From NCBI GenBank assembly GCA_014730275.1, contig WJIL01000006.1:36191-100190 (forward strand): a stretch of 64,000 nt of DNA, written 5' to 3'. Numbering within the stretch: position 1 is the stretch's first letter; each line of letters starts with the position of its first letter. Source of the stretch: Promethearchaeota archaeon (lineage in GTDB: Archaea; Asgardarchaeota; Thorarchaeia; Thorarchaeales; Thorarchaeaceae). The notes under the pieces were generated by a model that did no database searches, had not been told where the DNA came from, and worked only from the letters and a program-made list of their open reading frames with translations. A program made the translations under genes and the position numbers. Below are positions 8,316-40,099 of this stretch, piece after piece.

Positions 8316-8381
8316 CGTCCGTTCTGGATATTCGTCTCCCTTTCACCAGTTACTTTTTGAAACTTATGTTCTGTCATGATT

Positions 8382-26188: not shown

Positions 26189-27160
26189 ATGATGGACGTC
26201 ACAAAGGAAACCTTGGAAGATCTTTATACGCAGACTCTCAAAGTCAGGCTTTTCGAAGAAAAAGTATGGGAAGTATTCGGGCGCAATCTGATACCGGGCA
26301 CGCTTCATCTCTATCTTGGAGAAGAGGCAGTTGCTGCAGGTGTAAGTACAGCTCTGAGAGAGTCGGATTGGATTCAGAGTACCCATAGAGGGCATGGGCA
26401 CGTTGTCGCGAAAGGAGCGGATATGAAACGAGCTTTTGCCGAGTTGCTTGGAAAGAAGACGGGCTCATGCAAGGGGAAAGGTGGATCCATGCATATTACG
26501 GAGTTTGAGGCAGGTATTCTCGGCGCTACAGGCGTCGTGGCCTCAGGCCTACCAATAGCTGTTGGAGCAGCTCTTTCGGCACAGTTGCGAGGAACCGATG
26601 AAGTGGTAGCTTGTTTCTTTGGTGACGGAGCCTCAAACAACGGAACTTTCTGTGAGTCCCTCAATATGTCTGCGATATGGAAATTGCCTGTAATCTGGGT
26701 AGTTGAGAATAACTTTTACGCTATGGGGACACCAATCAAGCAGATGTGCCCAAGTCAGAGCATAGCAAGAAGAGGCGAAGCGTATTGTATCCCAAGTCAA
26801 GTTGTTGATGGCAATAATGCATTGAAGGTCTACAAAGCCGCAGCAGAAGCAGTAGAAAGAGCACGAAACGGCGAAGGTCCATCACTGATTGAGTGCCAGA
26901 CATACAGAAAGAAAGGCCATTCTCGCTTTGATCCCGCTGATTATCGACCAGAGGAAGAGGAAGAAGAATGGTTGAGCAGAGATCCTGTTGAAATAATCAC
27001 GAATCTTGCCATTGAGCAAAAAGCGTTGTCCAAGAAGAAAGCTGAGAACATCCGAAAACAGCTGCAAGAGCAAGTGGATGAAGCGGCTGAATTTGCAATC
27101 AATTCTGAACATCCTGAACCAGAAGAAGCTCTGGAAGATGTGTTTGCGGAGGTGGCCTAA
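26189..27160 (+). CDS. 2-oxoacid (pyruvate/acetoin) dehydrogenase E1 component alpha subunit, TPP-dependent
   Basis: 'LYLGEEAVAAGV', TPP-binding 'GDGASNNGTFCESLNMSAIWKLPVIWVVENNFYAMGT', phosphorylation-loop-like 'YRKKGHS'. Confidence 0.85.
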   Translation: MMDVTKETLEDLYTQTLKVRLFEEKVWEVFGRNLIPGTLHLYLGEEAVAAGVSTALRESDWIQSTHRGHGHVVAKGADMKRAFAELLGKKTGSCKGKGGSMHITEFEAGILGATGVVASGLPIAVGAALSAQLRGTDEVVACFFGDGASNNGTFCESLNMSAIWKLPVIWVVENNFYAMGTPIKQMCPSQSIARRGEAYCIPSQVVDGNNALKVYKAAAEAVERARNGEGPSLIECQTYRKKGHSRFDPADYRPEEEEEEWLSRDPVEIITNLAIEQKALSKKKAENIRKQLQEQVDEAAEFAINSEHPEPEEALEDVFAEVA

Positions 27161-28135
27161 TTGACGGAAATGACGTATCGAGAAGCCCTAAGAGAAGGTC
27201 TTAGAGAAGAATTACAGCGTGATGAACGCGTTTTCATGATGGGCGAAGATATTGGCAAAAACTGGGGTGGTGCATTCAAAGTAACCAAAGGTTTTGTCGA
27301 GGAATTTGGCGAAGAACGTATCAGAGACACACCAATTTCAGAGAACACAATTGCAGGAGCGGGTGTGGGTGCAGCAATAACGGGAATGCGCCCAGTTGCT
27401 GAGATAATGTTTGGTGATCTCATTACGCTGGCCATGGATCAAATCTGTAACCAGGCAGCAAAGATGCGATATATGTTCGGCGGACAAACATCTGTACCCC
27501 TTGTCTTGCGGACCGTATTTGGAGGGGGCAAAAATATTGCTTCCCACCACTCGCAGAGCCTACAAGCATGGTTCATGCATACACCAGGGCTCAAAGTAGC
27601 AGTACCTGCTTTCGCTTCGGATGTCAAAGGATTGATCAAGACAGCCATCCGTGATCCAGATCCAGTTATGTTTTTCGAGCATAAATTGGTCTATGACAAG
27701 AAGGAAGATGTACCAGATGACGAATACCTCATCCCCTTTGGGGAAGCGAAAATCCGTCGCGCAGGTGAGGATGTTACTGTCTGGGCCACGTTCAGAATGC
27801 TACATCAAGCCATAGAGGTAGCAGATGAGCTCGCCAAGGAAGGAATCAGTGTCGAAGTTATCGATCCAAGAACTCTAGTGCCGCTCGATAAGAAGACCCT
27901 CATTGATTCGGTTGTCAAAACGGGGAGGCTTGTTCTTGTTACTGAGGAAACCAAGACAGGAGCGACCACAGCAGAGATATCAGCATTGGTACAAGAGGAA
28001 GCTTTTGACTGGTTGGACGCCCCAATCAAACGGGTGAATGCACCCGATACACCAATACCTTTCAGTCCCACTTTAGAGGACTATTTCATACCTGACAAAA
28101 AGCAGATTTCCAACACAATCAAGAGTATCGTATAG
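27161..28135 (+). CDS. 2-oxoacid dehydrogenase E1 component beta subunit
   Basis: 'MTYREALREGLREEL...VFMMGEDIG' transketolase-pyrimidine-binding N-terminus and C-terminal transketolase domain; starts immediately after the E1alpha stop. Confidence 0.85.
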   Translation: MTEMTYREALREGLREELQRDERVFMMGEDIGKNWGGAFKVTKGFVEEFGEERIRDTPISENTIAGAGVGAAITGMRPVAEIMFGDLITLAMDQICNQAAKMRYMFGGQTSVPLVLRTVFGGGKNIASHHSQSLQAWFMHTPGLKVAVPAFASDVKGLIKTAIRDPDPVMFFEHKLVYDKKEDVPDDEYLIPFGEAKIRRAGEDVTVWATFRMLHQAIEVADELAKEGISVEVIDPRTLVPLDKKTLIDSVVKTGRLVLVTEETKTGATTAEISALVQEEAFDWLDAPIKRVNAPDTPIPFSPTLEDYFIPDKKQISNTIKSIV

Positions 28136-28151
28136 AATCTGAGGGAGCCCA

Positions 28152-29369
28152 ATGGTCGAGATTATGATAATGCAACGAATGAGCGTCGCAATGGAATATG
28201 GCGTGATTCTGGAGTGGCTAAAAGAAGAGGGTGAACACGTCGAAAAGGGCGAACCCGTTGTTGAAATCTTTGGTGAGAAAAATGAGTTCGAATTAGAATC
28301 GCCATACGAGGGTATACTTCTCAAACAGCTCTGTGAAGTGGATGATGAGATTCCAATCAGTGAACCTATAGCAATCATAGGCGAAGAGGACGAGGAAGTA
28401 CCTGATATCACACCCAAAAAGCTTGGAGAGATGGAAGAAGACCAGACTCCTGCTGCCGAAGACAAACGAACAGCTGTTGAGGTAGTCAAAGAAGCTGAAT
28501 CTACTGGGCAAACCGAAATCTCTAGGCTAAGAGGAGGGAGAGTCAAAGCATCTCCACGAGCAAGAAAGAAAGCCGAGGAGCTTGGTGTCAATATCAAAAT
28601 GGTTCGTGGTACAGGGCCGAGCGGTCGGATCGTAGAGGATGACGTGATAGAAGCATCAAAGGTACAGGTGGATTCTAGAGAAATAAAAGAAATAAAACCA
28701 ATGAGTCCATTGAGGCGGACAATAGCGCGAAGGATGACAGAAAGCTCAGAACGACCTCACATCACAATGATCACCGAGATTAACATGACAGAAGTTGTCA
28801 AACTCAGAAAAGAAATCAATACAAAAACTGAGAAAACTCATGCTTTGAGGATTTCGTTCAATGACATAATTGTAAAGGCTGTAGCAGACACCCTGGAGAA
28901 ATTCCCCCATTTCAATGCAACTCTTGAGGGTAACAACATCAAGATGTATGATGACATAAACATAGGAATAGCTATGGCAACAGATGAAGGTCTGATAGTT
29001 CCAACGGTGTTCTCAGCCAATAAAAAATCGATTACAGAAATAGCACAAGAAAGCCAAGGACTGAAAGAAAGAGCACAAGAAGGTGAATTGACTTCTGAAG
29101 AGCTTTCAGGCAGCACATTTACCGTCTCAAATCTAGGACCATTCCAAGTGGATCTTTTCATTCCACTCATTAACCCACCAGAAGCTGCGATTCTTGCTCT
29201 CGGGCAAATCAAAGAGAAGCCGGTGGCTGTTGACGGTATGATTGGTATTCGCCACATGATGATGGCTTCATGCGCAGTGGATCACAGAATCCTTGATGGT
29301 GCTCCTGCAGGAAAGTTCCTCCAAGTACTGAAGGAGTCTCTTGAGAATCCCTATTTCATGAAAATATAG
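28152..29369 (+). CDS. Dihydrolipoamide acyltransferase E2 (single lipoyl domain + E1/E3-binding + catalytic domain)
   Basis: Lipoyl domain 'VVEIFGEKNEFELESPYEGIL'; PSBD 'ASPRARKKAEELGVNIKMVRGTGPSGRIVEDDV'; catalytic 'DHRILDGAPAGKFL' (DHRxxDG). Confidence 0.8.
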   Translation: MVEIMIMQRMSVAMEYGVILEWLKEEGEHVEKGEPVVEIFGEKNEFELESPYEGILLKQLCEVDDEIPISEPIAIIGEEDEEVPDITPKKLGEMEEDQTPAAEDKRTAVEVVKEAESTGQTEISRLRGGRVKASPRARKKAEELGVNIKMVRGTGPSGRIVEDDVIEASKVQVDSREIKEIKPMSPLRRTIARRMTESSERPHITMITEINMTEVVKLRKEINTKTEKTHALRISFNDIIVKAVADTLEKFPHFNATLEGNNIKMYDDINIGIAMATDEGLIVPTVFSANKKSITEIAQESQGLKERAQEGELTSEELSGSTFTVSNLGPFQVDLFIPLINPPEAAILALGQIKEKPVAVDGMIGIRHMMMASCAVDHRILDGAPAGKFLQVLKESLENPYFMKI

Positions 29370-29379
29370 ATGAAACCAT

Positions 29380-29655
29380 TTAGCCATGTCTGAAGACTAC
29401 CCCGAATCCACCACGGGGATAGCTCCAGTCAACTGCATCATATGGACAGATGATTTTGCATGTTCCGCACTCGATACAATCTTCGTACTGGAAAGTCAGT
29501 TCTCCATCTTCCAGCTTGAAACATCCTGCTGGGCAACTAGGTATACAGGGTTTTGATTCACAGGATGAACACTCCTCCTTGTCTACTACTATGTGAGCTT
29601 CTTCATCAAAGCGGTATTTCAGTAAGCCTAATTTGTTCTCCAAATCATCTCTCAT
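29380..29655 (-). CDS. FixX-like ferredoxin
   Basis: 'CPAGCF...CIECGTCKIICPYDAVDWSYPRGGFGVVFRHG' reproduces the FixX C-terminal signature. Confidence 0.75.
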   Translation of the reverse strand: MRDDLENKLGLLKYRFDEEAHIVVDKEECSSCESKPCIPSCPAGCFKLEDGELTFQYEDCIECGTCKIICPYDAVDWSYPRGGFGVVFRHG

Positions 29656-30935
29656 AGCGCCCGCAATGCCTCCAGCAAATCTTTCATTATGTAAGGCAGA
29701 GGAACTCTAGAAAACATTTCATGAGTTGCCAACTGCAGCATCTTCTTTCGTTGTCCTTCTCCCTTGAAGGTATTCCGAGCGATAGCGTTGATGGTCTCAG
29801 CGTATTCTGTATGAAGCCGTGGATTTGACAAGAAGTCTGGTGCATGCTTGAATCGCCTAAGGTTACCTATGATGCCCCACTTCTCCAGATGATGCCAATA
29901 GGAGCTAAGCTGGGATTTTGAGAAATCTCCAGCGCTGACCGCATTTCGGACTGCTTGAGCAGCTGCTATGCCAGACGAAATTGCATAATTCATACCTTCG
30001 AATGCATATCCTAGATTCAAAACAAGTCCTGCAGCATCACCGACAACAATGATGCCATCATCGTAGAGCTTAGGCATACCACTGTATCCAGATTCAGATA
30101 CCAAATGAGCAGAATACTCGATAAGCTCTCCACCAGCAATCATCCTTCTGACAAGAGGGTGTGATTTCAGAGGGGCTACCAATTCAGGTGCTTCTAATCG
30201 TCCAGACTCAAAGCCGGATAAATGTGCCACCGATCCGAGAGAGATCGTGTTCAGATTCGTATAGAGAAAGCCACCCCCAGCTTCTCCCAGAGTGCATCCC
30301 AAAAATGAATGTGCAACTCCTTGCGAGCCCTCCAATCCAAACCGTTCTTCAATAATCTCTCGCGGTAAAGAATAGACCTCTTTTACACCTAGGCCCATTT
30401 CTGAAGGTTCTAGGGTTCCCTTCAATCCAGCATCGGTCGAGACCATCGAATTTACACCATCAGCGGCTATAACCACATCAGCGTGGACCTCTTCCCCATC
30501 AGAACGAATTCCGATTACTCTCTGGTCATCTTCGATAACGCCTTCAACAAGCACTCCCTCTACAAGAAGAGCACCTGCATTCTCGGCCATCTGAGAAAAC
30601 CATCTATCGAATTTGCTCCTGTTGATGGTATATGTTGAGTTGTCAGAAGCAAAGCTATCTCCTGAGCTGTATTCTAAAGTCGTTGCCGAATCGCCAGATA
30701 GAAAGGACACCCGGTGTTTGTTCACATGCCGCTCCACTGGAGATATTTCCCAAACATTGGGAATGAGTTTCTCCAAAACAGAGCCATTCAGAAGGCATCC
30801 GGATACATTCTTCTCGCCCGGTTTCTGTGCTCGGTCAACAAGCATCACTTCATGTCCAGTCTTGGCTAGAACGTAGGCAGCTGCACTTCCTGCAGGACCA
30901 GCACCGACAACAATGGTCTGTACTTTCTCTGGCAT
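29652..30935 (-). CDS. FixC-like FAD-dependent oxidoreductase (ETF-QO / geranylgeranyl-reductase superfamily)
   Basis: 'TIVVGAGPAGSAAAYVLAKTGHEVMLVDRAQKPGEK' Rossmann FAD motif; 4-nt overlap with the FixX-like gene. ATG at 30935 preferred over GTG 30944. Confidence 0.7.
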   Translation of the reverse strand: MPEKVQTIVVGAGPAGSAAAYVLAKTGHEVMLVDRAQKPGEKNVSGCLLNGSVLEKLIPNVWEISPVERHVNKHRVSFLSGDSATTLEYSSGDSFASDNSTYTINRSKFDRWFSQMAENAGALLVEGVLVEGVIEDDQRVIGIRSDGEEVHADVVIAADGVNSMVSTDAGLKGTLEPSEMGLGVKEVYSLPREIIEERFGLEGSQGVAHSFLGCTLGEAGGGFLYTNLNTISLGSVAHLSGFESGRLEAPELVAPLKSHPLVRRMIAGGELIEYSAHLVSESGYSGMPKLYDDGIIVVGDAAGLVLNLGYAFEGMNYAISSGIAAAQAVRNAVSAGDFSKSQLSSYWHHLEKWGIIGNLRRFKHAPDFLSNPRLHTEYAETINAIARNTFKGEGQRKKMLQLATHEMFSRVPLPYIMKDLLEALRAL

Positions 30936-30972
30936 CAATCCCACCCTTTAGGAGAATCTATGCAGTCATCCT

Positions 30973-32484
30973 CTAGATTTTGGACTCAGCTAGGTCTTGC
31001 TGTATCAAATCGGTTGTAATATCTGCAGACATGATAACGCTGGGAACTCCTGCACCAGGATGTGTTCCTGCACCGACTAGATAGAGCCCCTTAATGTCTC
31101 GTGATCGATTATGTGGTCTGAAGTAACCAGATTGCATAAGTAGCGGTTGTAGTGAGAAAGCTGTTCCTTTGTACGAATTGAATTCGTCCTTGAAGTCCTG
31201 CGGCGTAAATACACGTTCGACAGCGAGATTATCAAGCAGACCCGGTAATACACGTTCATCTAGATGTTCAAGAATGTGATTTTTGAAATCCGCTTTTTTG
31301 GTCTCCCAGTCCGTATTAGAATCCAAGTTAGTTACCGGTGTACAAGCGTACATCGTCTCGCATCCCGGAGGTGCAAGCTCTGGATCCGTACGCGTGGGGA
31401 TATGCAAGTACGTGGAGAAATCATCTGGAATCACATTGTTCTTGAAGATATCATCTATCAGTCCGCGATATCGGGGTCCAAAGACAATGCTATGATGTGT
31501 CATATCAGGATACGTCTTCTCGACGCCAAAATAGACCATGAAAAGGCTCATGCTCCAATCTGCTTTTCTATACCGTTTGTCGCTGTTCTTGCTTCGTTGT
31601 CGTTCATCTATCAAGCTAATGTAGGTCTCTGCCACGTCAGAATTGCAAACAACAATATCGGCATCGTAGTATTTGCCATCACTGGTTTCTACGCCTTCTA
31701 CAGCCCCACTTCTGTCAACAGGAATGGCAATGACTTCAGAATTCAATTTGATAGTCCCGCCCAGCTCCTCAAACACTTGACCCATTGCATCCACAAGTTT
31801 GTGAGTGCCTCCTTTGACCCACCACACGCCGTGCTTCTCTTCAATGTACGTGATGAGAGTATAGATAGCCGTTGCATCGAAAGGGTTACCACCAATAAAC
31901 AGTGGATTGAAGGATAATGCCATGCGAAGACGTTCATCGTCGACATAGTCTGATACAAACCCATAGACGCTCTTGTAGGCTTTGTATCTAAGGCCTGCAG
32001 GCGCCATCTTCGCCATACTCCAGATTGTTTCGAAGGGCATCGATCCAAACTTCTCAAAACCAAGTTCGTAGATTGGTTTAACTTTGTCTAAAAACTTGCG
32101 GTAACCATCTACGTCCTCCGGACTCATTTTCTGGATTTCAGCGATATTATCCTCATATCCACCATAATCCATGGTTGTGCCATCGGGGAAGTAAAGTCGA
32201 TATTTTGGCAACACACGCTCAAGTTCAACATAATCCTCCAATTTCTTGCCTGCAGCCTCGAAAACATCATGAACCACAGTAGGAGGTGTAACGATGGTGG
32301 GGCCTGTATCGAACGTATAGCCCTTCTCGGTGAAGACTCCCGCTCTACCTCCTAATTGATGTCTCTTTTCCAATAACGTGACTTCATGGCCATTCGCTTG
32401 GATTCGTATTGCAGCTGCTAGTCCACCTAGACCTCCACCTACAACACAGACATTTCGCCTATCAGTCTTTGTTTCATTTGACAT
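30973..32484 (-). CDS. crtI: Phytoene desaturase (CrtI family)
   Basis: 'NVCVVGGGLGGLAAAIRIQANGHEVTLLEKRHQLGGRAG' FAD motif; C-terminal 'GLYLVGAGTHPGAGVPSVIMSA' CrtI signature. ATG 32484 has a 'gagggt' SD; alternative ATG at 32502. Confidence 0.8.
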   Translation of the reverse strand: MSNETKTDRRNVCVVGGGLGGLAAAIRIQANGHEVTLLEKRHQLGGRAGVFTEKGYTFDTGPTIVTPPTVVHDVFEAAGKKLEDYVELERVLPKYRLYFPDGTTMDYGGYEDNIAEIQKMSPEDVDGYRKFLDKVKPIYELGFEKFGSMPFETIWSMAKMAPAGLRYKAYKSVYGFVSDYVDDERLRMALSFNPLFIGGNPFDATAIYTLITYIEEKHGVWWVKGGTHKLVDAMGQVFEELGGTIKLNSEVIAIPVDRSGAVEGVETSDGKYYDADIVVCNSDVAETYISLIDERQRSKNSDKRYRKADWSMSLFMVYFGVEKTYPDMTHHSIVFGPRYRGLIDDIFKNNVIPDDFSTYLHIPTRTDPELAPPGCETMYACTPVTNLDSNTDWETKKADFKNHILEHLDERVLPGLLDNLAVERVFTPQDFKDEFNSYKGTAFSLQPLLMQSGYFRPHNRSRDIKGLYLVGAGTHPGAGVPSVIMSADITTDLIQQDLAESKI

Positions 32485-32520
32485 AGTAATTTCTACCCTC
32501 ATTGTAATTGGTTGCTTGGA

Positions 32521-33486
32521 CTACCTCTGCCCTTTGCGGACTAAATCGTATGTTTTCTTCTCTTGATTGTATTTCCTGCGCAGTTTGAAAGCAATCCAGA
32601 GCTTCCTCCATTTTGGCACCACGGCCCGCTTCTCAAAGACCTGATAATCCATCTTTTCAATTTCATGCATGATTTCACCATAAACTTCCGCCGCAACTCT
32701 CACAGTAAAAGAAGCAGCCGGTGGCAAATCCTGTAAACCAATTTCGGCCTTTGCATAAATTGAATGAGCTCGAGCGATTTCGTGTTTGAGAAGCAATTCG
32801 AAATTAGGAGAAACTGTACGATTTTCAAAATCAGATATCGGTACCCTGAATTCGTCTCTTAGCTTCTTGGGCAAATAGATTCTGCCGTTGTCATAGTCTT
32901 CAGCAACGTCTCTCAATATGTTGGTAAGTTGAAGTGCTACTCCCAAATCAGCAGCGCGATCCAAAGTTTCTGGGTCAGTACTTCCCCAAATGTGGCACAT
33001 CATCAAACCAACCGTCGAAGCCACATGATAGCAGTATCTGTCCAACTCTTCCACAGTTTCAATTTCTTTCAGACGCAGGTCCATTCTGACGCCTTCAATC
33101 AGTTCATGCAGATATCGAACCGGTATCCTGTACTTCACCATAGTATGACCGAATGCTCTGAAAAGTGGATGGGAGAAAACCTCGCCCTTCGCCAAGCGTT
33201 CAGCAATATCTTTCAAGAGATCCAGTTCATGCTCGATCTCCTTGACGGTCAGCTCCATCTCATCGGCGAAATCATCAACCAATCTGCAGAACCCATACAG
33301 AGCAGCAATTGATTTCCGTTCTTCTTCATTCAAATATCGAGACGCAAAATGAAACGATCGAGCATGCAATTTGAAAACATCCATGCAGTACTCGTAACTC
33401 AAGTCCAAATCTGGTGCATCTAAATCGTCACTGCTATGTACTTCTGATGGTAATGTCGCCAAATGCGCGTGGTATTCACTCAGCAT
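32521..33486 (-). CDS. crtB: Phytoene synthase (CrtB; squalene/phytoene synthase family)
   Basis: 'YCMDVFKLHARSFHFASRYL', first Asp-rich motif 'FCRLVDDFADE', 'YLPKKLRDEF'. The ORF track extends to 33681; ATG at 33486 gives a typical ~320-aa CrtB. Confidence 0.8.
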   Translation of the reverse strand: MLSEYHAHLATLPSEVHSSDDLDAPDLDLSYEYCMDVFKLHARSFHFASRYLNEEERKSIAALYGFCRLVDDFADEMELTVKEIEHELDLLKDIAERLAKGEVFSHPLFRAFGHTMVKYRIPVRYLHELIEGVRMDLRLKEIETVEELDRYCYHVASTVGLMMCHIWGSTDPETLDRAADLGVALQLTNILRDVAEDYDNGRIYLPKKLRDEFRVPISDFENRTVSPNFELLLKHEIARAHSIYAKAEIGLQDLPPAASFTVRVAAEVYGEIMHEIEKMDYQVFEKRAVVPKWRKLWIAFKLRRKYNQEKKTYDLVRKGQR

Positions 33487-33742
33487 ATTCCTACTCCTCT
33501 CTACAGACACCCGGCACCTGTGACTGTGGGATTCTTGTTCCCACCTGAGCAATCCTGTTCTCTCCTCACGAAAGCCCATCTGTCTAAGATTTTTAGCACT
33601 ATCACAAAATATTGCTTTTAAACTAATAGATATTCCCTTGCCATTCTGTCGAATCGAGATTAGTGAAACAACGGTCATCACAGAGGGAGTAGGGTAACCA
33701 TATTAGGGATGGTTTCAGTAGATAATAGAGGAGTGAACTCAC

Positions 33743-35215
33743 TTGAGGATTGGAGTGATTGGAACAGGCATCGGTGGCCTATCTGCAGCAGCTTTGCTAG
33801 GCAAGCAAGGCCATGAGGTTGTCCTTATCGAGAAAACCGATAGACCTGGAGGAAGAGCACGTGTTTGGAAGAAAGACGGTTTCGTTTTCGATATGGGGCC
33901 GTCTTGGTATCTCATGCCAGAAATTTTTGATCACTACTTCGAGCATTTCGGAAGAAAAGCAGAAGATTTCTACGATCTCATACGACTGAATCCATCGTAC
34001 CGTATTTTCTTCCCGGAACGCGAAATCATTGACATCTCAGCGAATCTTGAAGAAAACATGGAACTGTTTGATCAACTGGAGGAGAATGGCGCTGAGAAAC
34101 TTCGGGAATACCTTGACCAAGCTGAAGAAAAATATGAATACCTGCTGGATGGTCTTATGTATGAGAACCTCTCGGGTATTCTATCGATGCTGAATCCAAA
34201 GCTGTGGCGGGCAGGTTGGAAACTCAGTATCCTTTCCAACATTGATGGCTTGGTTAGCAAGTACTTCGATGATGAACGAAGCAAGAAAATACTCGAGTAT
34301 TCCATAGTGTTCCTTGGAGGCAATCCCGAGAACACACCCGCGTTGTACTCGATGATTTCTCACATTGATTTCAATCTAGGCGTTTGGTATCCATATGGCG
34401 GAATTGGCAAAATCGTGGAGGCCCTCGTTTCATTGTGTGAGGAATACAACGTTGAATTCAGGTACAATACTGAAGTGGAACATATACAAGTAGAGAACAA
34501 GAAAGCAAGCAAGCTGATAACCAACAAAGGTTCTATCGATGGGGATATCTTCGTTGTCAATGCAGATTACCCACATTCCGAAACAGACCTTCTAGAAAAG
34601 CAATATCAGCAGTATCCAGAAAGATACTGGGAGGGCAAAACCATTGCTCCGTCAGCATTCGTTCTCTATCTCGGTCTTGACAAGAAAATCGATTCCTTGA
34701 CTCACCACAATGTTATCCTTGATCACGATTGGGTAGCGCACTTTAACCAAATTTTCGATGAACCGGGATGGCCGGATAAACCCGCATACTATCTTTGCTG
34801 CCCTTCGAGGAAGGATGATACGGTTGCACCTGAAGGAATGGAGAACATATTCGTGACCGTGCCGATATCACCAGGGCTGGAAGATACCCCTGATCACCGA
34901 GAGATGTATTTCAAAAAGATAGTCTCCCACATGGAGAAAGTGATTGGGGAACCTATTGAAGATTCAATTGTGGTTAGACGTATCTTCACACTGGATGATT
35001 TTGCCAATGAGTACAACGCGTACAAAGGAACTGCTGTTGGACTTACTCACACCTTCAGTCAGTCAGCATTCTTTAGACCAAGGCACGACAGCAAGAAAGT
35101 GGATAATCTCTATTACACTGGGCAATATACACACCCGGGAATCGGCGTACCAATGGCATTAATCTCTTCAGAGATTGTTGCCGACATGATAACCGAAGAT
35201 TATGACATTGCATGA
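33743..35215 (+). CDS. CrtI-family carotenoid desaturase (CrtD-like, carotenoid 3,4-desaturase candidate)
   Basis: 'IGVIGTGIGGLSAAALLGKQGHEVVLIEKTDRPGGRAR' FAD motif; C-terminal 'LYYTGQYTHPGIGVPMALISSEI'. TTG start with an upstream 'aggag'. Confidence 0.75.
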   Translation: MRIGVIGTGIGGLSAAALLGKQGHEVVLIEKTDRPGGRARVWKKDGFVFDMGPSWYLMPEIFDHYFEHFGRKAEDFYDLIRLNPSYRIFFPEREIIDISANLEENMELFDQLEENGAEKLREYLDQAEEKYEYLLDGLMYENLSGILSMLNPKLWRAGWKLSILSNIDGLVSKYFDDERSKKILEYSIVFLGGNPENTPALYSMISHIDFNLGVWYPYGGIGKIVEALVSLCEEYNVEFRYNTEVEHIQVENKKASKLITNKGSIDGDIFVVNADYPHSETDLLEKQYQQYPERYWEGKTIAPSAFVLYLGLDKKIDSLTHHNVILDHDWVAHFNQIFDEPGWPDKPAYYLCCPSRKDDTVAPEGMENIFVTVPISPGLEDTPDHREMYFKKIVSHMEKVIGEPIEDSIVVRRIFTLDDFANEYNAYKGTAVGLTHTFSQSAFFRPRHDSKKVDNLYYTGQYTHPGIGVPMALISSEIVADMITEDYDIA

Positions 35216-35231
35216 TGGAGAATAAGTGTGA

Positions 35232-36092
35232 ATGACGAATATCCTGAAGCTTGCTTATAGCATTTCAAGAGTCAGGTTCTGGCTGTACTTGGGTGGAACC
35301 TACCTCGTAGGCTATATTATCGGCATTTCTACAGTGGGCCAACTCATTGACCCTTTTTTCATCGCGCACCTCTTCTACTTCATGATCCCAGCCAATGTAC
35401 TTCTCTATGGTGTAAATGATCTCTCAGATCGTGATACGGATATGTTCAACCCAAAGAAAGGCGACAAAGAGTACAAGACCAAACAACAAGACCTAAAGAA
35501 GCTCTATGCTCTCGTAGGACTTTCTTTTCTATATGGCTTCATTCTCATGTTTTTCCAAAGTGATCTTACCGCAATTTTGCTTTTCGCGTCCTGGATGGTT
35601 CTTTCCGTTCTTTATAGCGTAGAACCAATCAGATTGAAAGCGGTACCTGTTTTAGATTTCACATCGAATTTCCTTTACGTTATTCCAGCGCTCTTGGCAA
35701 TATATCAAACTAAAGGAACTATTCCGCCTCTAATTCCGGTATTTGCTGCGTTCTGTTGGACAGCCGCAATGCAGCTCTTCTCTGCTGTTCCAGATATCGA
35801 GGCGGATAGAAAAGCAGACGTAAGAACCACAGCAGTAGCCATTGGGAAAAGAGCCTCGCTTCTCCTGTGTTTGGTATTCTGGGTCCTCTTCGCAGTGATT
35901 CTTGTTTTTGTTCATCCGTGGAATTACCCATGGAATCTCCTCACCTTTGTGTATCCCATGATTCCGGTTTACCTTATTCTAAAGCGGGAAGCTGATGTTA
36001 GCAGGGTCTACTGGTTCTTTCCCTACTGGAATGGCATCTTCGGTATGATAATCTTCTTCACTATTGGGCTTCCGAAACTGGGGATGATTTGA
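35232..36092 (+). CDS. UbiA-family prenyltransferase (lycopene elongase LyeJ-like candidate)
   Basis: Asp-rich 'NDLSDRDTDMFNPKK' motif and second 'DIEADRKAD' motif in a ~9-TM protein; sits between the CrtD-like and CruF-like genes. Confidence 0.65.
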   Translation: MTNILKLAYSISRVRFWLYLGGTYLVGYIIGISTVGQLIDPFFIAHLFYFMIPANVLLYGVNDLSDRDTDMFNPKKGDKEYKTKQQDLKKLYALVGLSFLYGFILMFFQSDLTAILLFASWMVLSVLYSVEPIRLKAVPVLDFTSNFLYVIPALLAIYQTKGTIPPLIPVFAAFCWTAAMQLFSAVPDIEADRKADVRTTAVAIGKRASLLLCLVFWVLFAVILVFVHPWNYPWNLLTFVYPMIPVYLILKREADVSRVYWFFPYWNGIFGMIIFFTIGLPKLGMI

Positions 36093-36868
36093 TGCAACTG
36101 AAGAAATCAAATGATGTGTTGTTGGCTGTATTCTGTGGAGCCTTCTTCCTGTCAAGTTACCTAGTGGCAAATGTTCCGATTGGCGAGTCGGTTACATGGG
36201 TTTCTGCCTTTTTCATTGTGGCCTTAGCTCTACCTTCTTACTACTATTTTATCAAGTGGGCAGGCCCAAAAAAGGGGATGTTGATACTGATTCTTTTCGC
36301 GATATTTCCAGTTATCATCGAATCGATCGGAATCTCAACAGGAATACCATACGGAAGCTTCCACTATGCTGAGACCATGGGATTCAAGATTCTTGGTTTG
36401 GTTCCATGGAGTGTTACTTTTGCATTTGGTCCATTGCTTCTTGGTTCCATGACGGTCACAACACGACTTTCTCAGAACGCGTCCTTAGCCATCCCGGCTA
36501 GCGCAATTGTGCTCGTCCTAGTTGACCTCGTGCTTGATCCTGCAGCAGTAGTACTCAATATTTGGGTCTGGTCACAACCAGGTGCCTATTATGGGGTTCC
36601 CCTCGTAAATTTCGTCGGATGGTTCATTACTGGAACTGTAGCATCAATTATCTTTCATCTACTTACGAGAGCGAATTCAGATAAGATGGTTCAAATGCCT
36701 CGGACTATAGCAAGTAGTCTGTTCATCATACTATCGTTTTGGAGTGGGTTCTCACTCTGGAAGGGGCTATTCGTTCCGCTTCTTGTTGGCATACTGTTGA
36801 TTGGTTTCCTTTCTTGGAGACTATACTATCCTCAGCTAACTATCCGCAATCGCCAGAAAAAGAACTAG
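36089..36868 (+). CDS. Polytopic membrane protein, CruF-like carotenoid hydratase candidate
   Basis: ATGA overlap with the upstream UbiA gene; ~7 TM helices; the position after CrtD-like/LyeJ-like mirrors the bacterioruberin triad. Family assignment by context, not motif. Confidence 0.4.
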   Translation: MMQLKKSNDVLLAVFCGAFFLSSYLVANVPIGESVTWVSAFFIVALALPSYYYFIKWAGPKKGMLILILFAIFPVIIESIGISTGIPYGSFHYAETMGFKILGLVPWSVTFAFGPLLLGSMTVTTRLSQNASLAIPASAIVLVLVDLVLDPAAVVLNIWVWSQPGAYYGVPLVNFVGWFITGTVASIIFHLLTRANSDKMVQMPRTIASSLFIILSFWSGFSLWKGLFVPLLVGILLIGFLSWRLYYPQLTIRNRQKKN

Positions 36869-36934
36869 AGAATCCACATAGCAGAACTTAAGAAGATACA
36901 TCTATGATGCAGAGCAATACAGGAGAGGACACAC

Positions 36935-37963
36935 GTGGATAATGACTTGCAACACCTCATCAGTACTGACAAGTCTCAGGCTGATCAAATGCTGCCTAAT
37001 TTTCTAGAGTTAGCAGAGATACAATCAAGGCTGCAAAGGATTGATGGTTACATTAACGAATTCATGGCCTCTAATCAGGGGAAACCCGAGATTCTCTACG
37101 AAGCAGCATACCATCTGATAAAGGCAGGAGGAAAGAGACTCAGGTCACTTATTGCCGTACTCGCGTGTGAGGCAGTTGGGGGAGAAATCGAAGATGTCTT
37201 ACCGGTTGCCTTAGCAGCTGAACTACTCCAAACTGCAAGTCTAATTCATGATGATCTGATTGACGATGACGAGACAAGACGAGGCGTGCCAACGGTCCAT
37301 AGCATCTTCGGTAGAAAAACTGCACTTCTCGCAGGTGACTTGTTGATATCACAGGCCATTCGCCTTCTAGGTGATTATGGAGAACCAGATCTTCTGAGTC
37401 ACATAGGTGTCGGGGGAACAAAAATGTGCGAAGGAGAAGCTGCAGATTTATACCTCAGCCCAGAAAGGCCGGAAGATTATACGCTTGAGGAGTACTTAGA
37501 AATAACGCAGCGAAAGACTGTATCATTCATTGAAGCCGCCGTTGCAATAGGCGTTAGAATCGGGGGTGGGGATGAAGTGAAAACAAAAGCACTCAAGGAT
37601 TATGCAAAAGGCATGGGTGTAGCGTTTCAGATTCGTGATGACATCCTCGATGTCCAGTCTCATGAACACACTGTTGGAAAGACAACAAAGTCAGACCTGC
37701 GTTTGGGCAGACCAAACTATGTCATTCTTAGCGCATTGAGATACAGCGACGAAGAAACAGGACAGAAGTTATTCAAAGCGCTAGTTGACGAAGATATTCA
37801 TAAAGTACTTCAAATCGTCGATGAAACTGCTGTTGTTGCTCTCGCGAAGGAAGATGCAAAGCAACACATAACCAAAGCGAAGAGGGCACTTCGAGAAGTC
37901 AAGATACTCAAAAAGCATCTTCTTAATAGGATGGCAGATTACGTAATTCATCGAAATGTCTGA
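36935..37963 (+). CDS. idsA: Polyprenyl (geranylgeranyl) diphosphate synthase
   Basis: FARM 'LIHDDLIDDDETRRG' and SARM 'IRDDILDV'; GTG start with 'aggagagg' SD. Confidence 0.85.
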   Translation: MDNDLQHLISTDKSQADQMLPNFLELAEIQSRLQRIDGYINEFMASNQGKPEILYEAAYHLIKAGGKRLRSLIAVLACEAVGGEIEDVLPVALAAELLQTASLIHDDLIDDDETRRGVPTVHSIFGRKTALLAGDLLISQAIRLLGDYGEPDLLSHIGVGGTKMCEGEAADLYLSPERPEDYTLEEYLEITQRKTVSFIEAAVAIGVRIGGGDEVKTKALKDYAKGMGVAFQIRDDILDVQSHEHTVGKTTKSDLRLGRPNYVILSALRYSDEETGQKLFKALVDEDIHKVLQIVDETAVVALAKEDAKQHITKAKRALREVKILKKHLLNRMADYVIHRNV

Positions 37964-37975
37964 TAGAAACAGAGT

Positions 37976-39043
37976 GTGGTTTTAATGGGGTTATCCCATG
38001 AGAAGGGAGACACGAGAGAATCAAAAAGAAACAGATTCAACTCCATTGTATCATGGATAATATTGATACGACCACCGTTCCTACTAGCAACCGCCGGTTC
38101 CATAGCTGTTGGTGGAGCAGTAGCATTTTCCGAAACTGGTTCTTTCAATTGGTTCCTGTTTGCTCTAACCATTATGTCAGGAGTTCTCATTCATATGGGC
38201 ACCAATGCCGCAAATGATTACTTCGACCATATGAGCGGTAATGACGATATTAACGTAAACTATGTCAAGCCATTTACAGGCGGTAGTCGCATGATACAAC
38301 AAGGAAGGCTTAATCCCAAAGACATTCTGAGTGTCTCTGTATCTTTGCTAACTATTGCTGCTCTGATTGGTTTCTACCTCTTTCTAAGCGTAGGGTGGAT
38401 TGTCCTCATACTGGGTTTATTCGGCGCATTCTCGGGTTTTTTCTACGCTGCCCCACCTATCCGCTTGGCAAGCAAAGGCATTGGAGAAATCCTAGTAGGG
38501 CTAAACTTCGGTATATTGCTCATCATCGGCACGTACTATGTTCAAACGGAATCTTTCGGCCTTCAACCGCTATTAGTATCGATTCCTATCGCTCTTTCAA
38601 TATCAGCCGTATTGTGGATCAACGAATTCCCAGATTATCAAGCGGATAAGCAAGTTGGGAAGGATACTATGGTAGTAAGAATAGGATTGCGAAGGGCATC
38701 TCATGTCTTTGTGGCTTTGATCCTGTCCGTCTATATTCTCTATGCGGTGTTTATCATTTCCGATTCTATCAACCACTACTCATCTTTTGTGTTCTGTACA
38801 GTTCCCCTAGGTGTGGTTTCCGTGATTGAAGCACGAAACCGGTATCCGTTTCCAGAGACCCTCGCACCAGCCAACGCATCAGCGGTTTTGAATCATCTAG
38901 TCCTTCTCGGATTATTAATCTCAGCTTATCTAGCTGCTTCAATCAAAGCACCAACTACCATGCTTATTCTAACAGGAACTGTAGTACTATTGATTTGTTT
39001 TGCTTTAGCAGCCGGTTGCAGAAGACTAGAAGCAAGCAAATGA
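37976..39043 (+). CDS. UbiA-family prenyltransferase (MenA/DHNA-polyprenyltransferase-like)
   Basis: 'NAANDYFDHMSGNDD' Asp-rich motif; 8-9 TM helices. Confidence 0.65.
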   Translation: MVLMGLSHEKGDTRESKRNRFNSIVSWIILIRPPFLLATAGSIAVGGAVAFSETGSFNWFLFALTIMSGVLIHMGTNAANDYFDHMSGNDDINVNYVKPFTGGSRMIQQGRLNPKDILSVSVSLLTIAALIGFYLFLSVGWIVLILGLFGAFSGFFYAAPPIRLASKGIGEILVGLNFGILLIIGTYYVQTESFGLQPLLVSIPIALSISAVLWINEFPDYQADKQVGKDTMVVRIGLRRASHVFVALILSVYILYAVFIISDSINHYSSFVFCTVPLGVVSVIEARNRYPFPETLAPANASAVLNHLVLLGLLISAYLAASIKAPTTMLILTGTVVLLICFALAAGCRRLEASK

Positions 39044-39141
39044 CAGTCCATCCAAAATACGACCTTAAATGCCAATGCCAAGAATCACACATGAGCCGCA
39101 CCATTGTGGTCGGTTCCAACCTCGAAACGACATCTGCTCTA

Positions 39142-39180
39142 GCCGGTGGCGAGTATCCTCCCGTCACCGGCACCTTTTTG
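39142..39180 (+). terminator. Hairpin + T5 terminator-like element after 37976..39043
   Basis: gccggtg(39142-39148)...caccggc(39165-39171) 7-bp stem, then 'ttttt' at 39175-39179. Confidence 0.45.
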
Positions 39181-39289
39181 TTCCAAAATAGTACCCCTTT
39201 AGTCTGTTATAACAACACCTATTAACATCAAATAGTAATTTTGTTTGAGGCTTGGAGAAGCGAGTGTACCTTACGGCAGATGTAGTACC

Positions 39290-40099
39290 ATGTCCTGGCG
39301 ATTGATAGATAATGAAGAATCCGATATATACAGGAATTTGGCGCTAGAAGAGAGTCTGGCCAGAACAAATGCTGGTGCAGTCGATAAAACAAATACAGTG
39401 CGGTTCTGGAAATCGGAACCCTCCGTGGTACTTGGTAGGTTTCAATGTGTTCATGAGGAAGTGAACATAGAGTTTTGCAGGAACAACGATATCAGTATAG
39501 CTAGAAGATTTACTGGTGGAGGAACTGTTTTTCACGACGAAGGTAATCTGAATATTTCATTCTGTCTCGATCAGTCGGAAAGCTGTGTTTCAAGAACCCT
39601 TCGAGAACTCTATTGGAATTTCATAGGCACTCTAGCCAAAGGTCTACGAAGCATCGGCATAGGCGCCAGTTATGACCCCAACAGAAGCTGTATTCGCATA
39701 AACGGGAGAAAGATTACAGGCACAGCAGGATGGCTCAAACAAGGAGTCTCATTCATCCACGGTACGCTCCTACTATCTGCAAATCTCGAAACGCTTAGGA
39801 GAGCACTTAGTCCGCCTCCAAATCAACCAGTCTATCTTAGAGATGGCAGGTCCATACGATGCAAGGAGAGCAAAAAGGACGTTGTTACCACAATTGCCAA
39901 AGAGTTCGACTCGCCACCTAATGAAGACGAAATCAAGCAAGCAATCATAGATAGTATTGCAACGTTCACAGGAGCGGAAATCGTCAAAGATAACTTTACT
40001 CAAAAAGAAGAGGCCATGGCAAATTCACTATATCATACGAGATACAAGAGAACTAAGTGGAATCTAGGCACACTGTCTGAAAGCAAATCTAGGAAATAG
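39290..40099 (+). CDS. lplA: Lipoate-protein ligase A (LplA/BPL-LPL catalytic domain)
   Basis: 'RRFTGGGTVFHDEGNLNISF' (RRxSGGGAVYHDxGN-type motif) and catalytic-lysine region 'GRKITGTAGW'. ATG 39290 gives a typical 'MSWRLIDNEESD' N-terminus (ORF track begins at TTG 39245). Confidence 0.8.
   Translation: MSWRLIDNEESDIYRNLALEESLARTNAGAVDKTNTVRFWKSEPSVVLGRFQCVHEEVNIEFCRNNDISIARRFTGGGTVFHDEGNLNISFCLDQSESCVSRTLRELYWNFIGTLAKGLRSIGIGASYDPNRSCIRINGRKITGTAGWLKQGVSFIHGTLLLSANLETLRRALSPPPNQPVYLRDGRSIRCKESKKDVVTTIAKEFDSPPNEDEIKQAIIDSIATFTGAEIVKDNFTQKEEAMANSLYHTRYKRTKWNLGTLSESKSRK

Follow-up and report, generated by a model that had tools for sequence, protein, structure and literature searches.

The closest described relatives of the locus analysed here are the bacterioruberin operons of haloarchaea, in which the genes follow the order crtD-lyeJ-cruF, as in Haloarcula japonica (c0507-c0505; Yang et al. 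2015, as cited in PMC9258230). Sets of lyeJ, crtD and cruF have also been found outside haloarchaea, in bacterial hosts such as Ca. Patescibacteria from Lake Baikal and pink Arthrobacter (PMC9948471, PMC9122864), and Arthrobacter makes proven bacterioruberin with Lye and CrtD enzymes that are 36-38% and 27-29% identical, respectively, to their haloarchaeal counterparts (PMC9122864). In the Asgard archaeon Ca. Kariarchaeum pelagium (Heimdallarchaeia), crtB, crtI, a putative lyeJ, crtD and, with a question mark, crtQ were listed at separate locations and without cruF (PMC12137139; preprint 10.1101/2024.09.18.613612). Similar gene sets are already on record in Heimdallarchaeia and CPR bacteria; the intact cluster described below is a further example of a pathway already known rather than a novel type of system.

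A divergent carotenoid gene cluster in an Asgard host

We analysed a 64,000-nucleotide stretch of DNA (the window) that contains seven clustered genes encoding the proteins MBD3157283-MBD3157289 of a metagenome-assembled genome (MAG) labelled Candidatus Lokiarchaeota. We estimate at roughly 0.7 the probability that the host, a Thorarchaeia-like Asgard archaeon, inherited these genes vertically as a functional carotenoid cluster that makes an acyclic, elongated and hydroxylated C50 product of the bacterioruberin series. The cluster and its immediate neighbours comprise the following features:

29380..29655, minus strand: FixX-like 2x[4Fe-4S] ferredoxin (Pfam Fer4 families and Fer4_ETF_QO; NCBIfam FixX 69 bits, under cut-off)
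29652..30944, minus strand: FixC / ETF-QO-like FAD oxidoreductase with a quinone-binding domain (Pfam FAD_binding_3; ETFQO_UQ-bd 29.8 bits, cut-off 27.7)
30973..32502, minus strand: CrtI, phytoene desaturase, phytoene to lycopene (TIGR02734 593 bits; NCBI name phytoene desaturase, MBD3157283.1)
32521..33486, minus strand: CrtB, phytoene synthase (ORF open to 33681; Pfam SQS_PSY 250 bits)
33487..33742, no strand: divergent intergenic region, read from the sequence (TTTTAAA and an inverted repeat)
33743..35215, plus strand: CrtD-type carotenoid 3,4-desaturase (NCBIfam "CrtID", NF058655 674.5 bits, cut-off 640)
35232..36092, plus strand: LyeJ-type lycopene elongase/1,2-hydratase, UbiA family (NF009516/PRK12875 294 bits, cut-off 205)
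36092..36868, plus strand: polytopic membrane protein of the CruF carotenoid hydratase family, with translational coupling to lyeJ (ORF from 36089; PF04240 Caroten_synth 152.7 bits)
36935..37963, plus strand: trans-polyprenyl diphosphate synthase (PF00348 polyprenyl_synt 213 bits; motifs DDLID and DDILD)
37976..39043, plus strand: MenA/UBIAD1-like aromatic prenyltransferase, UbiA family (PF01040 112.5 bits)
39142..39179, plus strand: hairpin (39142-39171; dG -20.5 kcal/mol), then ACC and T5 (39175-39179)

The coordinates and strands given for the seven ORFs (crtI to the MenA-like gene) in a preliminary description of this DNA were all borne out, and Pfam and NCBIfam HMMs agreed with the family that it had named for each of them, the chain length of the synthase being a separate matter. 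Its attribution to an Asgard-type genome also held, the closest homologues being from Thor-, Loki-, Hermod- and Hodarchaeota.

CrtI and CrtB are encoded on the minus strand, divergently from the five plus-strand genes. Together they would supply lycopene. CrtI matches Pantoea CrtI (PDB 4DGK) with 471 bits (E 3e-140), and CrtB shows the same sub-threshold NCBIfam profile as haloarchaeal CrtB. For crtB, translation most likely starts from ATG 33486 and yields 321 aa: JGI calls a protein of this same length, a GAGGAG is found 10 nt before that codon, and in the long ORF the Pfam domain is not reached until residue 105. Consequently, the intergenic region measures ~256 bp. At its centre, TTTTAAA (33616-33622) is a possible archaeal TATA element for either orientation, and GTGGGA-N7-TCCCAC at 33526-33544 forms an inverted repeat; a sigma-70 promoter scan, a model that is not applicable to archaea, stayed at chance level. 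The same RBS-like GAGGAG precedes the first gene of both divergent operons, lying 9 nt before the TTG start of crtD.

The plus-strand operon is tight, with 16 bp between crtD and lyeJ. The preliminary description saw an ATGA junction between lyeJ and cruF, which needs correction: it is either TGATG (1-nt overlap, ATG at 36092) or TTGA (4-nt overlap, TTG at 36089), and the 1-nt overlap also occurs in loci L001 and L003.

The CrtD-type enzyme and the haloarchaeal orthologues from crtD-lyeJ-cruF triads, which score ~750 bits, belong to the same NCBIfam equivalog, and an NJ phylogeny of the two CrtI paralogs places CrtD-type desaturases in a clade apart from CrtI. LyeJ likewise shares its equivalog with haloarchaeal LyeJ orthologues inside such triads (397-426 bits), in support of the proposed assignment; the motifs NDxxDxxxD and DxxxD are invariant throughout the aligned family, and a protein from the same 90%-identity cluster bears the IMG name "lycopene elongase/hydratase". 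As a DGGGP synthase or MenA, this protein was rejected, for it reached only ~24 bits on those models.

The CruF call had been said to rest on context only. That is no longer the case, since the protein is a clear Caroten_synth member, has archaeal CruF (TIGR03460) as its best NCBIfam match and shares with haloarchaeal CruF the invariant E77, TGxPYGxFxY, DxxxDP and GxYYGxPxxNxxGW. Its AF2 model is an all-helical membrane bundle (pLDDT 93). Of the two results that the preliminary description had named as refuting its reading, one for LyeJ and one for CruF, neither was obtained.

When compared with the haloarchaeal loci of Halarchaeum sp. CBA1220 and Halocatena salina (L004 and L005), the Asgard cluster has the same three families in the same order and orientation, with crtB nearby, passing CrtD and LyeJ equivalogs and shared UbiA Asp-rich motifs and CruF residues. 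It differs in identity, which is only 43-45% for CrtD, 35-39% for LyeJ and 25-35% for CruF, an overall comparison with haloarchaeal CruF giving only 25-27%, and in the CruF scores, which fall under the equivalog cut-offs. It also has a separate canonical crtI together with crtB in a divergent operon, whereas in neither haloarchaeal locus does a second crtI accompany the triad. Moreover, the host is of a non-halophilic type, and no bacterio-opsin-linked regulator lies near the Asgard cluster, whereas the Halarchaeum locus has a bacterio-opsin activator gene. Coupling to rhodopsins had also been suggested, but neither a rhodopsin nor a retinal-forming enzyme was detected when the membrane ORFs of the window were inspected. 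Ca. Kariarchaeum pelagium likewise has crtB, crtI, crtD and a putative lycopene elongase, but in the window a single operon carries the whole triad together with extra genes.

The prenyl synthase and its MenA-like neighbour

The synthase at 36935..37963 had been described as a GGPP synthase. If so, it would feed the carotenoid route and the MenA-like gene would be an unrelated passenger, which we regard as a serious but doubtful alternative. Its best PDB matches are indeed archaeal GGPP synthases (1WY0, 173 bits; 5JFQ, 160 bits) and its best NCBIfam models the short-chain IdsA and GGPP_syn, but every NCBIfam match falls well short of its cut-off (244 bits where 468 are required, and 193 where 500 are). 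In one Asgard locus (L087) the synthase gene overlaps cruF, implying co-transcription with the triad. Before the first DDxxD, however, positions -5 and -4 are Ala and Ser, whereas 1WY0 and 5JFQ carry a chain-limiting Tyr or Phe at -5; every Asgard orthologue shares this substitution, and the orthologues also keep the context TASLIHDD, which is typical of medium- and long-chain synthases. A type-I archaeal GGPP synthase was rejected because this aromatic residue is missing; the type-III GGPP synthases of eukaryotes likewise have small residues at -4 and -5.

The synthase gene occurs only next to the MenA-like gene and is missing from most Asgard clusters, which must therefore draw GGPP from the housekeeping lipid pathway. 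Given this constant pairing and the Ala at -5, the GGPP synthase label is weakened, and the enzyme is more likely a quinone side-chain synthase working with the MenA-like enzyme. The latter has MenA models as its best matches, all under cut-off (157 bits against 277; TIGR00751 100.3 against 102.15), human UBIAD1 (8djk) as its best solved relative, and homologues of 41-52% identity annotated as MenA in many anaerobes. A MenA-like UbiA protein with a trans-prenyl synthase directly upstream resembles the MenA/UBIAD1 and polyprenyl diphosphate synthase pair of menaquinone synthesis, although the sub-threshold MenA scores and the place inside a carotenoid operon set it apart, and no other men or mqn genes were seen in the window. 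The pair is most plausibly a prenyl-quinone module, added to the operon in certain lineages, and not a GGPP supply.

The plus-strand transcript probably ends at the hairpin and T5 predicted after the MenA-like gene. The hairpin itself is real, with a 10-11 bp stem and a z of -3.95 against shuffled sequences (none of 200 as stable); a generic terminator scan did not pick it up because its loop exceeds 8 nt.

A proposed C50 route and other possible products

We infer the pathway from the haloarchaeal and Arthrobacter route (PMC9122864). CrtB would condense two GGPP into phytoene, which CrtI would desaturate to lycopene; the LyeJ-type UbiA protein would then attach a DMAPP-derived C5 unit to C-2 and hydrate the 1,2 bond, and the CrtD-type flavoenzyme would put in the 3,4 double bond. 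Repeating these last two steps at the other end of the molecule would give bisanhydrobacterioruberin, and the CruF-type membrane protein would finally hydrate the two added C5 branches. An identity of 35-45%, as in the Asgard cluster, leaves room for the same chemistry, since the Arthrobacter enzymes, whose pigment is proven, are similarly distant from the haloarchaeal ones. No gene for a C50 cyclase (CrtYe/Yf type) or lycopene cyclase is in the cluster. Judged from the genes present, their families and motifs, the tight operon and the synteny, a long, red C50 membrane pigment of the bacterioruberin series is the most likely product.

The triad might instead use lycopene for another end product: a C45 mono-elongated carotenoid, un-hydrated bisanhydrobacterioruberin, or a C40 1-hydroxy-3,4-didehydro carotenoid made by CruF as a 1,2-hydratase acting with CrtD. 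We consider this improbable. It is consistent with the scores of the CruF-like protein, which stay under both bacterioruberin-hydratase cut-offs (TIGR03460, 128.6 bits against 154.7; a second CruF equivalog, 100 against 300) and reach 69 bits on the gamma-carotene 1'-hydroxylase CruF model, as well as with the separation of the Asgard clade from haloarchaeal and Arthrobacter sequences. It also fits a Heimdallarchaeia locus (L031) where lyeJ and crtD are convergent neighbours, cruF was not found (as in Ca. Kariarchaeum) and LyeJ falls outside the Thor/Hermod clade. Yet archaeal CruF scores highest of the three CruF models, and a LyeJ-like gene is always there, translationally coupled to cruF, when a C40-only route needs none.

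A start from FPP, with CrtM/CrtN-type C30 enzymes and an elongase building C35/C40 diapocarotenoid derivatives, is very unlikely: the best solved relative of CrtB was deposited as CrtM (8is6, 147 bits, against 117 for 5iys, an entry named phytoene synthase), but SQS_PSY members are not separable by such scores, CrtB has the haloarchaeal CrtB profile and the desaturase matches the C40 enzyme of Pantoea.

Conservation, inheritance and neighbouring genes

The five-gene core order crtI<-crtB<- ->crtD->lyeJ->cruF recurs in ~24 independent Asgard loci, from genomes labelled Thor-, Hermod- and Promethearchaeota and including a closed 3.16-Mb Thorarchaeota chromosome, a recurrence that chance does not explain. 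The LyeJ sequences from Asgard archaea group in a single clade (84% NJ bootstrap), and the LyeJ and CrtD trees, made by NJ only and without resolution of deep branches, are congruent, which supports inheritance of the cluster as a unit. A possible horizontal acquisition had been raised; GC, GC3 and codon usage of the seven genes lie inside the window background, and since the cluster matches its flanks, recent transfer is not supported. Any transfer of the cluster is ancient.

The LyeJ, CrtID and CruF families are also widespread in methanogens (among them the strict anaerobes Methanoculleus and Methanocalculus), Bathyarchaeia and CPR/DPANN. The CPR and methanogen type is arranged differently, as [cruF]-crtD-crtB-lyeJ; its CrtB is divergent (24-28% identical), and a CrtI of its own is missing. 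No carotenoid is reported from methanogens (PMC9410494), nor is one known from Bathyarchaeia or CPR/DPANN, which speaks against the C50 reading. A phytoene-desaturase homologue of Methanosarcina acetivorans makes hydroxyarchaeol (as cited in PMC10821996 and PMC9128505), but modification of membrane ether lipids or other polyprenyl compounds by the CrtI-family, UbiA and Caroten_synth genes is hardly credible when the cluster of every lineage contains a phytoene/squalene-synthase gene, to which the Asgard clade adds canonical CrtI, neither of which serves ether-lipid modification.

A FixC-FixX pair, not previously reported, is a conserved neighbour downstream of crtI. The fixC-like gene starts 28 bp beyond crtI on the same strand and overlaps fixX by 4 nt; its product scores 368 bits on NCBIfam FixC (cut-off 610) and 119 bits on GG-red-SF. 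It occupies the same position in seven other loci (L019, L021, L024, L027, L028, L029 and L087), and in 8 Asgard loci fixX and crtI stay linked. The fixX-like gene, last in a putative crtB-crtI-fixC-fixX operon, is a candidate accessory gene. In vitro, the electron acceptor of CrtI is O2 or quinones, which weighs against the C50 reading for an archaeon of anaerobic sediment. The Asgard attribution is further supported by a gene elsewhere in the window for a Ras-family GTPase with a fused beta-propeller.

Gene content and layout of the carotenoid cluster

All seven open reading frames (ORFs) of the divergent carotenoid cluster proposed in the preliminary description were recovered at the same coordinates in our ORF list, and their families were assigned using Pfam and NCBIfam models. 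The cluster and its immediate neighbors are as follows:

26189-29369, + strand: 2-oxoacid dehydrogenase E1alpha-E1beta-E2 genes, on one side of the cluster
29380-30944, - strand: FixC and FixX pair, 28 bp downstream of crtI and on the same strand
30973-32502, - strand: CrtI (TIGR02734, 593 bits; cut-off 238)
32521-33681, - strand: SQS_PSY synthase, presumed CrtB (PF00494, 250 bits)
33743-35215, + strand: second CrtI-family enzyme, CrtD (NF058655, "bifunctional phytoene desaturase/3,4-desaturase", 674.5 bits; cut-off 640)
35232-36092, + strand: UbiA enzyme, LyeJ (PF01040, 91 bits; NF009516/PRK12875, 294 bits; cut-off 205)
36089-36868, + strand: Caroten_synth protein, proposed CruF (PF04240, 152.7 bits; cut-off 25)
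36935-37963, + strand: polyprenyl synthase (213 bits)
37976-39043, + strand: MenA-like UbiA enzyme (MenA models are the top matches, all under cut-off)
39142-39171: hairpin with a 10-11 bp stem (dG -20.5 kcal/mol, z -3.95), followed by T5 at 39175-39179
39245-40099, + strand: lipoate-protein ligase (LplA) gene, on the other side of the cluster

The hairpin and T5 tract said to terminate the + strand operon proved real when the region was folded; a generic terminator scan, which performed at chance level, had missed this hairpin because of its long loop. A sigma-70 promoter scan, a type of scan unsuited to archaea, also gave chance-level results only. The crtD, lyeJ and cruF genes are adjacent and co-oriented, with a gap of 16 bp between crtD and lyeJ and an overlap between lyeJ and cruF, and the latter junction reads TGATG or TTGA rather than the ATGA first described. 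Since the calls from JGI are shorter for both the synthase and the MenA-like genes, the starts of these two genes are uncertain. On the other arm, crtB probably starts at 33486, which would give a divergent intergenic region of 256 bp with TTTTAAA at its center. This TTTTAAA (33616-33622) is a candidate TATA element, and an inverted repeat in the presumed crtB leader (GTGGGA-N7-TCCCAC, 33526-33544) is a candidate operator.

The CrtD-LyeJ-CruF triad and its predicted product

As references for the proposed bacterioruberin-type triad, we used two haloarchaeal triads, one from Halarchaeum sp. CBA1220 and one from Halocatena salina, each located on a large replicon. At these two sites, a crtI-family gene, a prenyltransferase gene and an annotated cruF follow each other in that order, with an adjoining phytoene synthase gene, and the crtD-lyeJ-cruF order is common to these two loci, to the window and to about 20 Asgard loci. 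The assignment of 35232-36092 as a lycopene elongase stood up to this comparison, since this enzyme groups with the model PRK12875, which the LyeJ orthologs of the two haloarchaeal triads match at 397-426 bits, and not with DGGGP synthases or MenA, whose models gave only ~24 bits. The UbiA aspartate motifs NDxxDxxxD and DxxxD, invariant across the alignment of the LyeJ family, are also kept. The proposed CrtD likewise exceeds the cut-off of NF058655, the model that the haloarchaeal triad CrtDs match at ~750 bits, and it belongs to a clade apart from the CrtI of the window. As for the proposed CruF, it is a member of PF04240 in which 28 invariant positions are the same as in haloarchaeal CruFs, among them the motifs E77, TGxPYGxFxY, D145xxxD149P and GxYYGxPxxNxxGW. 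Neither of the two results that the preliminary description had named as refuting its reading, one for LyeJ and one for CruF, was obtained.

The best NCBIfam match of the CruF of the window is the archaeal CruF model TIGR03460, but it does not reach the equivalog scores for a bisanhydrobacterioruberin hydratase (TIGR03460, 128.6 vs 154.7; NF041333, 100 vs 300), while the haloarchaeal CruFs score 356-377 bits with CruF_Halo and 167-192 bits with TIGR03460. A CruF-like protein from Methanoculleus is also under the CruF equivalog cut-offs, and a search of PDB sequences with the CruF-family profile matched nothing meaningful. Identities between the window proteins and their haloarchaeal orthologs are 43-45% for CrtD, 35-39% for LyeJ and 25-35% for CruF. 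Arthrobacter makes bacterioruberin with enzymes that are no more identical to the haloarchaeal ones than these values (PMC9122864). Altogether, family membership, motifs and conserved synteny support the prediction that these genes form a bacterioruberin-type triad.

In the divergent - strand arm, the CrtI of the window matches Pantoea CrtI (4DGK), a characterized four-step C40 desaturase, with 471 bits. CrtB falls under the cut-offs of all NCBIfam equivalogs, with HpnD topmost, and its best PDB match is named CrtM. A squalene route via HpnD (presqualene-PP synthase), which this top match suggested, was rejected because two haloarchaeal proteins encoded at the crtB position show the same sub-threshold pattern and because the desaturase next to it is clearly of the CrtI kind and not HpnE.

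By analogy with the route of haloarchaea and Arthrobacter (PMC9122864, PMC9258230), CrtB would condense two GGPP molecules into phytoene, which CrtI would desaturate to lycopene. LyeJ would then C5-prenylate and 1,2-hydrate lycopene before CrtD introduces the 3,4 double bond; repetition of these last two steps at the second end would give bisanhydrobacterioruberin, whose C5 branches would finally be hydrated by CruF. An acyclic product fits with the lack of a cyclase gene in the cluster.

The synthase/MenA-like pair and the FixC-FixX pair

The polyprenyl synthase had been described as a GGPP synthase that completes the carotenoid route, and its best solved relatives are indeed archaeal GGPP synthases (1WY0 and 5JFQ). 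At the fifth residue before the first DDxxD, an aromatic residue reportedly halts elongation at C20 in type-I trans-prenyl synthases, according to Ohnuma and colleagues. In the HMMER alignment, this residue is Tyr in 1WY0 and Phe in 5JFQ, but it is Ala in the synthase of the window (…LLQTASLIHDDLID…; LLQTASLIHDD) and in all the Asgard orthologs found, so that the bulky aromatic hallmark of type-I archaeal GGPP synthases is absent. Medium- and long-chain synthases typically show an A-S-L-x-H-D-D context, and small residues are found at the same site in eukaryotic type-III GGPP synthases too. The protein is also under every NCBIfam equivalog cut-off, including those of GGPP_syn and IdsA. The GGPP synthase assignment is weakened by the Ala at -5 and by the missed cut-offs, and we now consider it a real but minority option. 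To our knowledge, GGPP is present in every archaeon for ether lipids.

The synthase gene is missing from most Asgard clusters searched by tblastn and occurs only when the MenA-like gene is next to it, as in the window and in loci L021, L023, L024, L030 and L087. In L087, a JGI contig, it overlaps cruF, from which we infer co-transcription of the two genes with the triad and a possible functional link. The MenA-like enzyme has UBIAD1 as its best solved relative and homologs in anaerobes that commonly carry the MenA annotation; it remains under the curated MenA cut-offs (best 157 vs 277; TIGR00751, 100.3 vs 102.15). Because of the Ala at -5, the missed equivalogs, the exclusive pairing and the UBIAD1/MenA kinship, we read the two genes as a putative prenyl-quinone module. 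A PNPOx-like FMN-binding domain (PF01243) is fused to several MenA-like homologs (P0137, P0145, P0164, P0184, P0208, P0217, P0220, P0222 and P0234), which hints that this subfamily may act on a substrate other than DHNA.

On the other side of crtI, the FixC/ETF-QO-like flavoprotein has a quinone-binding domain over the Pfam threshold, and its partner is a FixX-like ferredoxin. The linkage of crtI with this pair was found in seven further loci belonging to two Asgard sub-clades (L021, L024 and L087; L019, L027, L028 and L029), with HSP-derived gaps of ~40 bp or less, and no fixAB genes are near the pair in the window. FixC was dismissed as a lycopene cyclase, having just a weak N-terminal FAD-fold match (22.6 vs a cut-off of 23.4 bits). 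The pair could work with the neighboring dehydrogenase genes, be a prenyl reductase paralog or transfer electrons from the desaturases. A more speculative idea that builds on this last option, and to which we give little credence, is that the whole cluster is a self-contained, oxygen-independent desaturation unit, in which FixCX would be co-transcribed with crtB-crtI, and the synthase and MenA-like genes with the triad, so that a prenyl-quinone would be made and recycled while taking the electrons of CrtI and CrtD. If true, such a unit would account for the ability of strict or near-strict anaerobes to make highly unsaturated carotenoids.

Conservation, inheritance and genomic setting

A scan with the LyeJ alignment, using one genome per GTDB species, gave at least 580 loci, of which 80 were kept and searched by local tblastn with the window proteins. 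Two architectures emerged among the compared loci. The Asgard type (crtI<-crtB<- ->crtD->lyeJ->cruF) is found in MAGs labeled Thor-, Hermod- or Promethearchaeota, in a closed Thorarchaeota chromosome (CP070761.1) and in the JGI contig L087, and it usually lies between a 2-oxoacid dehydrogenase E2 gene and a lipoate-protein ligase gene, as in the window. Many Thorarchaeota loci share this E2/LplA bracketing, and the window showed no E3 gene. The non-Asgard type ([cruF]-crtD-crtB-lyeJ), with a divergent CrtB and without a separate crtI, is found in Methanoculleus, Methanocalculus, Methanomassiliicoccales, Bathyarchaeia, Hadarchaeota, DPANN, CPR and Armatimonadota, among others. In three Thorarchaeota-type loci (L010, L012 and L013), lyeJ and cruF are ~2.6-3.3 kb apart; an extra carotenoid enzyme was rejected as the insert, which in L010 (8991-10778) is an aldehyde:ferredoxin oxidoreductase gene.

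In neighbor-joining (NJ) trees, the Asgard LyeJ proteins form one clade (84% bootstrap) with which the CrtD tree is congruent, and the Heimdallarchaeota and Borrarchaeum sequences fall outside this clade. A sister relationship of this clade to the methanogen/Bathyarchaeia group had only 7% bootstrap, and the deep topology was not relied on. The seven genes do not differ from the rest of the window in GC content, GC3 or codon usage. The horizontal acquisition suggested earlier is rejected in so far as it would be recent, since neither the GC profile nor GC3 nor the codon-usage distance departs from the background. Because the composition matches that of the window, and considering the trees, these sequence comparisons indicate that the cluster is an old, vertically inherited trait of this Asgard branch and not a recent import.

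A cruF-crtID-crtB(like)-lyeJ cluster was also observed in Methanoculleus, Methanocalculus and other Methanomicrobiales (L034, L037, L039, L040, L049, L053, L054, L068, L073, L077 and L079), with the LyeJ match at ~8001-8846 in most of these loci and at 5113-5928 in L039. Cultured Methanoculleus and Methanofollis species have CruF homologs (P0334, P0362, P0385 and P0386), and, like the window proteins, those of Methanoculleus sediminis exceed the NCBIfam cut-offs for LyeJ and CrtID. The related four-gene cluster is carried by two cultured methanogens, Methanoculleus sediminis and Methanocalculus chunghsingensis. Methanogen carotenoids are unstudied according to a 2022 review. Which products are made without oxygen is a general question, given that methanogens, Bathyarchaeia and CPR/DPANN commonly carry this gene set.

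The families, the gene order and the pathway logic are already known. In IMG, a LyeJ from the same 90%-identity cluster is labeled "lycopene elongase/hydratase" and an 87%-identical CruF "bisanhydrobacterioruberin hydratase"; close homologs are already correctly auto-labeled. Partial versions have been reported: lycopene synthesis genes in deep-sea Heimdallarchaeia, and lyeJ, crtD and cruF in CPR bacteria from Lake Baikal (PMC9948471). We found no paper in the open-access literature on the full conserved five-gene Thor/Hermod cluster, on its MenA-like module or on its linkage with FixCX. Confirmation of the product would mean that Asgard archaea of the Thor/Hermod branch, which live in sediments, have C50 carotenoids as pigments. 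This would have a bearing on the membrane biology of Asgard archaea and on their contact with light or oxygen, and would provide a concrete lipid biomarker for sediments and enrichment cultures. In haloarchaea and cold-adapted Arthrobacter, C50 carotenoids are known to make membranes more rigid and to protect them.

Concerning the host, the seven window proteins exactly match NCBI entries MBD3157283-MBD3157289, which belong to a MAG labeled Candidatus Lokiarchaeota. Members of their 90%-identity clusters are labeled Thorarchaeota, and JGI metagenome 3300037504 and SRR12689834 contain this DNA as well. For four proteins at the window edges, no record with the exact sequence was found. The nearest LyeJ homologs (59-69% identity) come from Thor-, Loki-, Hermod-, Hod- and Promethearchaeota. 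Further features lie elsewhere in the window:

45512-47077 and 47214-48773, - strand: two tandem paralogs, each with a signal-anchor N terminus and a C-terminal TM segment
52192-53559, + strand: geranylgeranyl-reductase-family flavoprotein (GGR_cat), ~13 kb from the cluster, a possible lipid/prenyl reductase
53817-56730, + strand: three consecutive look-alike ORFs of 304-343 aa
60761-63058, - strand: fusion of an N-terminal FG-GAP/BBSome-like beta-propeller to a C-terminal Ras/Rab-like GTPase (Ras family, 157 bits), 765 aa in total

The propeller-GTPase fusion is taken as a typical Asgard feature, a eukaryote-like signature protein, and together with the nearest homologs and the cluster labels it supports the view that this is an Asgard-type genome, as first proposed. 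The suggested coupling of the pigment to rhodopsins found no such backing, with no Bac_rhodopsin or heliorhodopsin match in a scan of ten window ORFs for membrane or unknown proteins. The product of 45512-47077, the member of the tandem pair that was scanned, is a purple-acid-phosphatase-like metallophosphoesterase. The first of the three look-alike ORFs (53817-54848) has no Pfam match, and the three may constitute a lineage-specific paralogous family.
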